Shown here: one piece after another, positions 8,905 through 56,411 of the stretch
Numbering within the stretch: position 1 is the first letter of the stretch
How the letters are laid out: each line of letters starts with the position of its first letter
Origin: a phage
NCBI GenBank assembly: GCA_018175075.1
Contig: GCA_018175075.1_4100.2
Length of the DNA: 64,000 bases
Reading direction: 5' to 3' (one strand)
The notes under the pieces: model-generated
Databases searched by the model: none
What the model was told of the DNA's origin: nothing
Seen by the model: the letters and a program-made list of their open reading frames with translations, nothing else
Made by a program: the position numbers and the translations under genes

Positions 8905-10043
8905 CCCTTTTACAAATATATGAAGATTTAATGCACTTATGTAATACAAACGATGCGTTTTTTTATGTGGATCATAAAAGTCCTGCTGGTGGTACGTATC
9001 GTGTATTCAGTTATCGTCTAGCATCATACACTGATTTCATGCAACCAAATGCGTTGGAAACCCGTGGCTCTATGTGGGAAATTGATGAAGAAGGTGACAT
9101 GATACGTTGTGCAGCACGTACAATGAAAAAGTTCTTCAATGCTTACGAGAATCCTGCTACAATGTTCCCTGCTAACACCACATGCGATGACATTGCGGTA
9201 GTGATGCCTAAGTTGGATGGTTCGATTATCAGTACTTATCGTGATAATGATGGTGAGATTCGTTGTAAATCACATACTGCATTGTATTCTGACCATGCGA
9301 TTAACAGTACTCGACTTATTAACGAGAACCAGAATTTGTACCAGTACATCGACGAAGCGGAACGTTTAGGTTACACAGTTAATATGGAGTATACAAGCCC
9401 AGAGTACCGAATTGTATTACCATATCAGGTAGAACAACTGTTTGTACTGAACGTTCGACATCGTGTGAGTGGTGAGTTGCTATGTGGTAAAGCACTACGT
9501 GATAAGTTTCCATGTCTTGCACAGTACAGTACTAATATGACTGGAAAAGATATTCATCACACTTTTCCGGTACGAAATACCTTCCGTGAAAGCGTGGAGG
9601 AAGTTCATAAAATGCTTGATATTGAGGGTTTTGTGTGCATCCTAAATAATGGGACAATGTGTAAAATAAAGACTGACTGGTACAGTTCATTACATCTTAC
9701 AAAAGATAGTATTATTATTGATTCTCATTTATATGAAGCAGTATTAAATGGTTCAAGTGATGATTTAAAACAATTGTTCAGTACTGATGAATATGCTATG
9801 CAAAAGATATTAAGAATGGAACAATTGGTATTTTCGTGCTATAATGCATTACAAGATGAAGTAGAAAGCTTCGTCAAGGAACACAAGCACTTGGAGCGAA
9901 AGGAATTCGCAATGAAGGTTCAGGAGTGTTTAACTAATGAACTGAATCGTCAGGGCTTGGCCTTTGCAATGTATAACAATAAGAAAGTTGATTACAAAGA
10001 GACTCTTATAAAATACATGAAAATTGTACTAAAGGATTTTTAG
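8901..10043 (+). CDS. rnlA: RNA ligase 1 (T4 gp63-like)
   Basis: N-terminal region closely resembles T4 Rnl1 as I recall it (FFY...YR.FSY..ASY.D...P.ALE.RG.M.E); length 380 aa; RBS GAGGT. Confidence 0.85.
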   Translation: MTLLQIYEDLMHLCNTNDAFFYVDHKSPAGGTYRVFSYRLASYTDFMQPNALETRGSMWEIDEEGDMIRCAARTMKKFFNAYENPATMFPANTTCDDIAVVMPKLDGSIISTYRDNDGEIRCKSHTALYSDHAINSTRLINENQNLYQYIDEAERLGYTVNMEYTSPEYRIVLPYQVEQLFVLNVRHRVSGELLCGKALRDKFPCLAQYSTNMTGKDIHHTFPVRNTFRESVEEVHKMLDIEGFVCILNNGTMCKIKTDWYSSLHLTKDSIIIDSHLYEAVLNGSSDDLKQLFSTDEYAMQKILRMEQLVFSCYNALQDEVESFVKEHKHLERKEFAMKVQECLTNELNRQGLAFAMYNNKKVDYKETLIKYMKIVLKDF

Positions 10044-54893: not shown

Positions 54894-55292
54894 ATGCTTA
54901 AAGAATTAGATTTTTCAAACTTAGAAATTATCAGTGCTGTAAAAAACATTTCCGATATGGGAGATGAGAAAGCAGTTCTTGTTACTATTACTTTTGTAAA
55001 AGAAAAAGATAGCTATAGCCATTTAACTGGTATTGAAGAACTAATTCATAAAACCAATCTTGAGAATGATGGTAAACTCATCAAGCTTCAGGCTTCATAT
55101 ACGCAAAAAACGTCAAATTTTATAGACCTAAATAATGTAGTCAAGGTGGTATACAATCATCCTGAACACACATATAGGAACACGACAAGAAATGAAAATG
55201 TTGCTAACGATTCGAATATTATCGAAGATGTTGAATTCATAAACACAATTTTTGATCGTTGTTCTAAGGATTTAAAAAAAGTATACATGTAA
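54894..55292 (+). CDS. hypothetical protein
   Basis: ORF. Confidence 0.5.
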   Translation: MLKELDFSNLEIISAVKNISDMGDEKAVLVTITFVKEKDSYSHLTGIEELIHKTNLENDGKLIKLQASYTQKTSNFIDLNNVVKVVYNHPEHTYRNTTRNENVANDSNIIEDVEFINTIFDRCSKDLKKVYM

Positions 55293-55293
55293 T

Positions 55294-55321
55294 GGGACAT
55301 TATATGTTCCAATGATATAAT
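55294..55321 (+). promoter_or_regulatory. sigma70-like early promoter (GGGACA -16- TGaTATAAT)
   Basis: GGGACA at 55294-55299; TGATATAAT at 55313-55321; shares ATGGGACATTAT with the promoter at 31464. Confidence 0.55.
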
Positions 55322-55327
55322 GTATAT

Positions 55328-55843
55328 AGAAAATGACAACGGACATTGAAAAATGGACACTGAGAACCTACTTCTCTTGAAAATGTAAAGGATAGATGAG
55401 CTTTACCGTTGTAGCGAACAGCAGAAGAAACCTGTTAGAGTACTGGCATTCAAACAAACACGATGTAAGACCACGAATCACGGCGACACGGCTGTATAAA
55501 GAACTCCGATAAGCATACAGAGAGTTCCTAGATAGATGTATAAGGTTCGCACCTTACCAGATTTGCTAAGGGAGTTTAAGGATAGCGGACGCAATTTTAC
55601 AAGAAAGTTGCGTCCAAAATTTGAGAACAGGTACTTACTTTGATCGAATAGAGTTAGTACTGAGTGCTGTTGATGAAAAGACCAGCGACCGTTGCATATG
55701 ACTGCGATAGAGAGAAACCGAGCAACCCGCTTTCGCTCTCTAAATTTTGGTACAAGAAAGATCCGTCCAAAATTTGAGAAATTCGCAATTCGATAATATC
55801 CGATGCCATCATCGTCAAGAGAGACTTAATTGTCTCTTTTTTA
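55328..55843 (+). ncRNA. candidate structured non-coding RNA (~515 nt, unknown class)
   Basis: Promoter-to-terminator interval with no ORF of 60 aa or more inside it; visibly more GC-rich than flanks; internal repeated hairpin modules; terminator at 55817-55843. Confidence 0.4.
55817..55843 (+). terminator. intrinsic terminator
   Basis: Hairpin AGAGAC-TTAATT-GTCTCT plus T-run. Confidence 0.6.
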
Positions 55844-55982
55844 TTACCTTCATTCCCCTGCGGGGGGATGTAATAGTCCTCAACAAATCCCGTCAAGTTT
55901 TTAAAGTACATTATCATTTTCAGAAGGAACTAGTTTACGAAGTAAACGCAGTGACTTCTTGAGTTACGAGAGAACGAAGTGA

Positions 55983-56411
55983 ATGAGTAACACAACGAAA
56001 ATATCCGATAAATCCGAATTAACACAAATGTTATTCAAAGAATATTTTGAGTTTCAGATAAAAGACGAACAACAATTACCACAGCAATATTTGAAAAGAA
56101 TTAAAGATCCGTCAGTAATTACTAAAGAAACTAATTTTTATAATAGTATTTTGGATTTCGTTAAATCAGTTCATACAACAAGACCTATTGTAGTTTTGTT
56201 TTTTGATAAATCTATTCCTTTAGTAGTTCCTGAAAATGTATTTTTTATTTCAGAAACTGATTTAAATAATCAAAGTACTGTAAGTAGATTAAGAAATTGC
56301 TTACTTGTAGTATGTGATTCTTCTTTGTATAATAACAGAATACTATGGGATAGAAGTAAACGCAATGCAGTTTCGGAAATGAATCCTGAAATTACCTTTA
56401 TTATTAACTAA
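55983..56411 (+). CDS. hypothetical protein
   Basis: ORF. Confidence 0.5.
   Translation: MSNTTKISDKSELTQMLFKEYFEFQIKDEQQLPQQYLKRIKDPSVITKETNFYNSILDFVKSVHTTRPIVVLFFDKSIPLVVPENVFFISETDLNNQSTVSRLRNCLLVVCDSSLYNNRILWDRSKRNAVSEMNPEITFIIN

Follow-up and report, generated by a model that had tools for sequence, protein, structure and literature searches.

The subject of this study is a direct repeat of 30 nucleotides (nt) in a 64,000-nt stretch of phage DNA (contig GCA_018175075.1_4100.2; hereafter the window), which belongs to an Asteriusvirus jumbo phage. The repeat lies in a 690-nt gap (55293-55982) that is free of open reading frames (ORFs) and is flanked by two genes on the plus strand. This gap shares 99.7% identity with Escherichia phage vB_Eco_slurp01 and 98-99.4% with PBECO4, 121Q, phAPEC6 and Sharanji, and its G+C content is 0.40-0.43, as compared to ~0.30 in the surroundings. 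Copy 1 of the repeated module, TACAAGAAAGTTGCGTCCAAAATTTGAGAA, occupies positions 55598-55627 of the plus strand and copy 2, TACAAGAAAGATCCGTCCAAAATTTGAGAA, positions 55751-55780 of the same strand; the two are identical at 28/30 positions and are spaced 153 nt apart. When the 690-nt gap was shuffled 200 times with its dinucleotide content preserved, the best direct repeat of 30 nt reached 19/30 on average and 22/30 at most. The near-identical repeats that had been noticed in a preliminary description of this DNA are therefore real, and lie 5-8 nt upstream of where they had been placed.

Taken together, the comparisons presented below show that both 30-mers represent the same conserved hairpin module, present once on each of two arms of a large predicted RNA. 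The RNA, its two arms and their hairpins are laid out as follows:

55364-55846, plus strand: conserved RNA core from P1 to a terminator-like hairpin, within a predicted RNA of ~520 nt (fold z = -2.67 for the single sequence)
55574-55628, plus strand: arm A (site S1), a variable hairpin arm 3' of the invariant GCUAAGGGAG, drawn from per-sequence folds
55587-55615, plus strand: copy 1 hairpin, in which GGACGCAAUUUU pairs with AAAGUUGCGUCC around the loop ACAAG (inverted repeat of 12 nt, 92% complementary)
55736-55779, plus strand: arm B (site S2), a variable hairpin arm 3' of GCAACCCGCUUUCG, drawn from per-sequence folds
55742-55775, plus strand: copy 2 hairpin, in which AAAUUUUGG(U)AC pairs with GUCCAAAAUUU around the 11-nt loop AAGAAAGAUCC

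Over ~480-540 nt the gap shares 66-76% identity with homologues in other phage genera and in bacterial elements. Folding of 26 diverse copies with RNAalifold predicted 78 base pairs, 72 of which, in 13 helices, were counted on the alignment. Across the 26 homologues, 96.5% of the cells at these 72 pairs were paired, as compared to 37-45% when the partners were slid by 1-3 columns. Changes on both sides were found in 40/72 pairs (8-16 in the slid controls), and the covariation score was 0.444 as compared to 0.05-0.08 in the controls, with 0/500 shuffles reaching the observed values. More than 100 positions of the RNA are invariant. The gap thus encodes a real structured non-coding RNA (ncRNA), the transcription of which is predicted, and the suggestion that the repeats sit inside an ncRNA candidate is borne out, both copies lying within a structure that is backed by compensatory pairs.

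A degenerate coding duplication had also been considered as a source of the repeat. The longest open stretch (50-115 codons) switches strand and frame among the 26 homologues and the insertions and deletions between them are not multiples of three, so that no reading frame is conserved and a coding duplication is ruled out. Many GenBank records have one to four small hypothetical coding sequences annotated over the gap (for example, 121Q gene 516 and A4_511; the equivalent in the window is 55654-55917, minus strand). These annotations, found in many Asteriusvirus records, overlap the RNA, do not keep their frame, and are probably spurious.

Known RNA families do not account for the element. 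No Rfam 15 family was found in the 64-kb window at the gathering score, and a search of positions 55100-56100 gave only chance-level matches to small nucleolar and small RNAs (E 0.9-8). In eight homologous loci Rfam likewise returned no match to the RNA, either at the gathering score or at E<=10, only an unrelated thiamine pyrophosphate (TPP) riboswitch and a signal recognition particle (SRP) RNA, and ARAGORN detected 0 transfer RNAs and 0 transfer-messenger RNAs in the window. We found no homology to the ncRNAs defined by RNA sequencing in the related phage PA5oct. In every record inspected the RNA is unannotated or labelled as tiny hypothetical ORFs. The finding points to a large RNA family that matches no family in Rfam and for which literature searches found no published description. 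Large, intricately folded RNAs of bacteria and phages are rare, and each earlier find has opened a line of work.

Among phages, matches to the RNA are restricted to the Rak2-like jumbo clade, in 70-72 of 50,697 records, with 3-5 places per genome. Homologues with 66-76% identity were found in GAP32, CBB, XbC2, fHe-Yen9-04, BF, Erwinia phages, Munch and fENko-Kae01, with weaker matches in K64-1, RaK2 and XaC1. The RNA is kept as several diverged copies in at least four genera of giant phages: 121Q has at least three diverged copies, at ~193, 247 and 327 kb, and one metagenomic phage of 366 kb has four. A family-specific pattern retrieved 26 viral, 39 metagenomic and 4 bacterial-genome loci. Judging from collinearity with 121Q (L053), the paralogue 121Q_c3, which has the module in arm A only, is expected ~0.5-1.2 kb upstream of window position 1.

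Within the 64-kb window itself no further copy of the module or of the RNA was found. The 17-mer CGTCCAAAATTTGAGAA, searched on both strands with up to 3 mismatches, matched the two module copies only. A partial third copy, AAAGATCCGTCAGTAATT, with an exact 11-mer AAAGATCCGTC, occurs on the same strand at 56103-56120, inside the downstream ORF; it is probably due to chance, since it is not conserved in the JNE01 orthologue.

The two different hairpins that had been proposed for the repeat are both present, one per copy, in the folds as well as in the pair probabilities. In copy 1, GGACGCAA (55587-55594) pairs with TTGCGTCC (55608-55615), and the extended stem comprises 12 bp (55587-55598 with 55604-55615). 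In copy 2, AAATTTTGG (55742-55750) pairs with CCAAAATTT (55767-55775), and AC/GU at 55752-53 and 55765-66 extend the stem; arm B is in turn enclosed by a helix of TGCGA (55703-07) with TCGCA (55783-87), that is, UGCGA and UCGCA in the RNA. The pair probabilities of the native stems in the 482-nt RNA are 0.89-1.0 for the copy 1 hairpin and 0.63-1.0 for the copy 2 hairpin.

Since the same 30-mer is predicted in two hairpin contexts, the preliminary description proposed that one core can be sequestered in alternative helices. Such a conformational switch, in which the core alternates between two helices or the copies compete for flanks, could gate, for example, termination at 55820-55845, where a terminator-like hairpin does lie 3' of the RNA; moreover, UCUC at the base of arm B has an alternative partner, the invariant GAGAGA at 55710-55715, in the minimum-energy fold of the single sequence. 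However, the two contexts turned out to be two separate arms, with a dedicated partner strand for each module copy. Two cross pairings were assessed in the 482-nt ensemble, arm B flank to copy 1 core and GGAC to copy 2 GUCC; both have a probability of 0.0, and the best structure forced to hold a cross helix is 9.4 kcal/mol worse. Covariation supports both hairpins at once, and 40/59 members of the family carry a single module and 7/59 none; a mechanism based on competition between copies cannot be the conserved one, as it would require two modules and most members have one at most. We consider a switch of either form extremely unlikely.

The arms also show covariation of their own. When folded individually, 17 A arms of diverse members each formed a long hairpin, with z values of -2.6 to -7.2 relative to dinucleotide shuffles. 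At rung -4, counted from the conserved CGU, 7 arms have A:U and 9 have U:A; at rung -2 there are 6 with C:G and 8 with G:C. These arm statistics use per-sequence folds, since MAFFT did not align the arms consistently with their structure. The two bases that distinguish the copies in the window (UUGC in copy 1, AUCC in copy 2) are exactly the two arm A rungs that flip with full compensation across the family. In arm B, changes on both sides were found in 4/4 pairs of the base helix (helix 10) and in 3/5 pairs of the enclosing helix (helix 8). The arm B stem changes from GG:CC to AG:CU in JNE01/Turkey5 and in a copy on an Escherichia coli genomic island (described below), and from U:A to A:U in the island; one base is compensated in A4.

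G.U pairs in these stems place the signal at the level of RNA, on this strand. This bears on the alternative that the repeats bind a protein on the DNA, as iterons or operators, for instance at a replication origin, for which one might cite the direct repeats themselves, the 3-5 dispersed copies over a genome of ~350 kb and the ParB/RepB-like neighbours in one Serratia element. But the partner strands covary with G.U pairs, which is sensible only in RNA of this strand, and the copies are unphased at their distance of 153 nt and embedded in the helices of a structure with 40 compensated pairs. Given this strand-specific pairing signal, iterons or origin repeats were rejected, and we attach next to no credence to DNA-level sites in general. 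We also rejected a type III toxin-antitoxin RNA of the ToxI kind, with ~36-nt tandem repeats beside an endoribonuclease toxin gene; the copies here stand far apart in a larger structure, and the downstream genes differ among paralogues.

Pairing alone does not explain how the module is conserved. In arm A of the window and of many other members, AAAG-UUGCGUCC forms the 3' strand of a continuous stem with UACAA at its tip; this long, unbroken hairpin takes its 3' strand from the 3' two-thirds of the module. For arm B of the window, the 11-nt loop AAGAAAGAUCC is closed by AC and GU from the ends of the module itself, and a 5' strand of its own serves as the partner of the A/U-rich tail; the 11-nt loop closes further, through GGA/UCC or ACG/CGU, after single substitutions in ph0011, CMSTMSU and JNE01. 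UACAA in the GAP32 group is paired with UUGUA, leaving GAA as the loop. Open and closed apical forms are found at either site, in different members, and what stays constant is the sequence UACAA..AG-WUSCGUCY-AAAAUU-YRGAGAA and not a single fold. RNAs with no more than 66-71% identity overall still share the module's 3' strand and loop, and so do the two sites, whereas of the 5' strands only the complementarity is kept. The 3' strand is clearly more constrained than the 5' strand, and the conservation of the module sequence exceeds the needs of pairing.

One conserved strand that faces a merely complementary one, in arms that form irregular duplexes of 20-25 bp, would also suit a small-RNA precursor, the hairpins of which are processed, for example by RNase III, to release the conserved 3' strand (..AGAUCCGUCCAAAAUUYAGAGAA) as a small RNA acting by base pairing. 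Searches for a complementary site, which did not extend to short seed matches, found none, however: at E<=10 the 5,426 complete E. coli genomes matched only in the two islands that bear the RNA, and the 64-kb window gave no site even with as many as 3 of 17 positions allowed to mismatch. We regard such a precursor as very unlikely.

The preliminary description had reckoned with the possibility that the repeat would be absent from related phages. It is present in relatives: nine Asteriusvirus orthologues keep both copies, at a divergence of up to 21% (A4, JNE01), and in the distant orthologues JNE01, Turkey5 and A4 copies 1 and 2 diverge independently. That the copies in the window agree at 28/30 positions is therefore due to constraint on both and does not point to a recent duplication or gene conversion. 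This retention argues against the second copy being a functionless leftover of an internal duplication that was kept by chance, as does the occurrence of two-copy RNAs in the Serratia, Silvania and E. coli elements, outside the lineage of the window, and the preservation of the same sequence at either site in the RNAs with 66-71% identity. A neutral relic would fit the variable presence of the module, which seven members lack altogether and which is missing from one paralogue within the same genome (121Q_c2), but on balance it seems quite improbable.

Across the 59 distinct members of the family, 23 carry the module in arm B only, 17 in arm A only, at least 12 in both arms (a lower bound, as the regular expression used misses A4, the E. 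coli island and L102) and 7 in neither. An arm without the module is a short hairpin of 4-9 bp. Two metagenomic members (L091 and L084) have two tandem modules in a branched arm A, with GUGAUGGAUUU.UACA.UA.AGAUCCGUCCAAAAUUCAGAGAA occurring twice, and the family therefore has three possible module positions. The core pattern of the module gave 26 matches in the 911 kb examined, all of them inside family members and on the RNA strand.

A module that changes arms, and that most members have on one arm or on both, could be part of the intramolecular architecture, docking on another part of the same RNA as a tertiary contact or stabiliser, with either arm usable since the arms would be close in space. 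In support of this, some arms that lack the module are capped by a GNRA loop (GAAA in the GAP32 group and BF_c2; GAGA, GUAA and GAAA in BF_c1, 121Q_c3 and L041), and in several members with the module in arm A only, the loop AUUGUAUAG of a neighbouring hairpin is complementary to the module tip UACAAU. But the GNRA loops are inconsistent, many members having UUUA, UUAG, UUAU, CUUGU or UCAAU, and a tetraloop-receptor swap between the arms, which would call for GNRA in nearly all arms without the module, was rejected. Kissing of the tip with AUUGUAUAG was rejected as well; it suits some arm-A-only members, but the window and 121Q_c3 lack the UACAAU/AUUGUA complementarity. Pairing of the copy 2 AUCC with GGAU at 55580-83 is contradicted by near-identical phages in which GGAU changes to GAAU uncompensated, a point that also counts against docking, and no covarying partner was found. 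Intramolecular docking is in our view unlikely, if less so than the alternatives discussed above.

The interpretation that we favour, with somewhat less than even confidence, is that the module is recognised, through its sequence, by one common trans-acting partner and that the arms are interchangeable. This partner would most likely be a protein and less likely another RNA or another copy of the same RNA. Arms A and B would serve as mounting points for the module, and the RNA of the window would offer two sites where most relatives offer one. Of the two roles that the preliminary description had thought suitable, the repeated protein-binding site fits, the sequence being kept beyond pairing needs; the switch does not, given the separate partner strands and cross-pairing close to zero.

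Several points weigh against this interpretation. The apical folds vary, including long closed hairpins, self-paired UACAA/UUGUA tips and open 11-nt loops, which is awkward for one rigid binding site. Seven of the 59 members are without the module, which must therefore be dispensable for the role of the core. The rung counts in arm A come from per-sequence energy folds and not from an independent structural alignment, and arm A of the window's lineage contains uncompensated changes in the 5' strand (A.C in ph0011, U.U in JNE01). Finally, the RNA is predicted from sequence alone and its partner is putative. The module is nonetheless the most accessible handle on the function of the RNA, being short, defined by its sequence, exclusive to the RNA and naturally present in 0, 1, 2 or 3 copies.

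Apart from arms A and B, a third variable arm is found at 55420-55470, as an insertion in a helix closed by CCGU/ACGG (also given as CCUG/ACGG). The insertion measures ~45 nt in the window and the GAP32 group and ~25 nt in other paralogues, is absent in the Munch group, and never bears the module.

The predicted RNA is framed by further signals and downstream elements:

55294-55321, plus strand: candidate sigma-70-like promoter just 5' of the RNA (GGGACA, 16-nt spacer, TG-extended TATAAT; 10/12 consensus matches)
55820-55845, plus strand: terminator-like hairpin AGAGAC/GUCUCU followed by a U run (helix 12; 4/4 pairs with changes on both sides, T run nearly invariant)
55850-55873, plus strand: nearly invariant hairpin UCAUUCCCC-UGCG-GGGGGGAUGUAA, directly 3' of the U run (helix 13)
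55881-55897, plus strand: conserved block CAACAAATCCCGTCAAG (also written CAACAAAUCCCGUCAAG; family form CAACAAAUCYCGUCA), from homologue comparison
55934-55991, plus strand: two more conserved hairpins, UUUA-CGAAG-UAAA and GUUAC...GUAAC, the latter with a loop containing GAACGAAGUGA and overlapping the ATG at 55983

From its match to the consensus we infer a promoter function for the candidate at 55294-55321, and extended -10 boxes (TGGTATAAT, TGTGATATAAT) are also present 5' of the bacterial copies L115, L117 and L118. At 55820-55845 a stable hairpin is predicted to be followed by a U run in a conserved position, as in an intrinsic terminator; a simple consensus scan missed this hairpin. The next hairpin, at 55850-55873, can also be written UCAUUCCCC-UGCG-GGGGGGAUG or UUCAUUCCCC-(UGCG)-GGGGGGAUGAA. 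It is present in every copy, including L003-L009 and L114-L118, with a fixed stem sequence, a variable loop and no compensatory change. Since the stem is fixed and the loop varies, these alignments suggest sequence-specific recognition rather than mere structure. This invariant C4/G6 hairpin presumably resembles the repeat of the E. coli type I-E CRISPR (clustered regularly interspaced short palindromic repeats) system (UUCCCC...GGGGAUAAA).

In the downstream hairpins the stems vary among homologues and the loops are kept, both the C(GNA)G-type loops (UUCGAAGAA, UACGAAGUA, AUCGUAGAU) and the loop GAACGNAGUGA at the ATG at 55983. In BF_c1, Hallingskeid, EJP2 and L045, and in the copies located between the endonuclease VII and baseplate hub genes, the hairpins are followed by a strong terminator and no ORF, and they therefore belong to the element and not to a particular gene. 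The possibility that the RNA is the leader of a conserved downstream protein was rejected for similar reasons, as the downstream genes differ and some copies have none. Some paralogues have TATAAAT on the 3' side of the block at 55881-55897, a sequence similar to the late-promoter motif ATAAATA that was reported for phage CBB (PMC5259590).

The RNA is also found, in one copy each, in a few enterobacterial prophages and genomic islands. In Serratia fonticola, Serratia sp., Silvania hatchlandensis and a metagenome-assembled genome of an Enterobacteriaceae, it lies at the edge of an integrated element:

L115 3490-4047; L116 5399-5940; L117 3655-4153; L114 6463-7044: bacterial chromosomal copies at the edges of integrated elements

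Their neighbours are large serine recombinases, two ParB/RepB-like genes (L117) and CI-like repressors (L114 and L115), and on the opposite side lie host genes (rof-tilS, dapE-arsC, and thiM with a TPP riboswitch). In E. coli, 2 of the 5,426 complete genomes contain the RNA. In the one inspected, strain LR-29-1 (NZ_AP027515.1), a full-length copy with both modules (L118 8605-9201) occupies a 1.4-kb unannotated gap in an integrase-bearing island that is inserted beside ffs. The island carries DuOB, DUF488 and mSLOG-DUF4326 genes, a match to the candidate defence system PDC-M45. Direct repeats resembling TATCGATCGTT are present further downstream in L118, at ~9590-9650. None of 72,556 plasmids contained the RNA. 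Its presence in jumbo phages as well as in integrated elements and an island indicates that the RNA travels on several kinds of mobile element.

These contexts lead us to a broader proposal, which we consider possible but rather doubtful. The RNA, kept as 3-5 paralogues per Rak2-like jumbo phage and copied onto enterobacterial prophages and defence islands, would represent a new class of large mobile-element RNA that recruits its partner through the module, with the number and position of modules (0-3, in arm A or B) tuning how many partners each paralogue binds. It could act as a ribonucleoprotein scaffold or decoy in phage-host conflict, an idea prompted by its presence on a defence island and on prophages. 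Alternatively, it could be a structured primer or organiser of multiple replication origins; this idea stems from the several dispersed copies in a T4-related genome of 350 kb and from the conserved G/C hairpin after the U run.

In comparison with known systems, the RNA resembles riboswitch and attenuator platforms in that a single sequence, upstream of a terminator-like hairpin, allows two different helices to be drawn. It differs from them in that the two helices use different copies and coexist, cross pairing is negligible and no aptamer match was found. For the RNA as a whole, though not for the module, RNA-primed origins offer another parallel, such as the ColE1 RNA II (~550 nt) and the R-loop origins ori(uvsY) and ori(34) of T4. 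As in these, a structured predicted transcript of ~0.5 kb is followed by a G/C hairpin, and the copies are dispersed in a T4-related genome of 350 kb and occur in integrative elements. Unlike them, the locus shows no GC-skew inflection and the survey of 72,556 plasmids gave no match; the likeness is one of context, and priming is hypothetical.

The multi-hairpin protein-sponge RNAs CsrB and RsmZ likewise present a short motif on separate hairpins of one RNA, in variable copy number, and the role as a binding site would be shared with the module. In contrast to these, the module has no GGA motif and occurs in 0-3 copies, on a large, rigidly conserved scaffold instead of a string of simple hairpins. 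Group I introns and RNase P RNA have relocated peripheral elements (tetraloops and receptors, extension arms), and share with the present family a conserved core, variable arms and the same accessory element at different positions. The family differs in that a GNRA loop-receptor pair could not be demonstrated, the module is conserved on one strand, and some members have two or three copies and others none.

Among large RNAs, the nearest counterparts are GOLLD and ROOL (Rfam RF01998 and RF03087), ornate RNAs that are often borne by phages or prophages. Like these, the present RNA belongs to the ~0.5-0.8 kb class, has many covarying helices around highly conserved junctions, is carried by phages and prophages, and has no protein-coding role and no established function. 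It differs from both in giving no covariance-model match at the thresholds tried, in its occurrence in jumbo myoviruses of Enterobacterales, in its 3-5 diverged paralogues per genome, and in its movable, repeated hairpin module.

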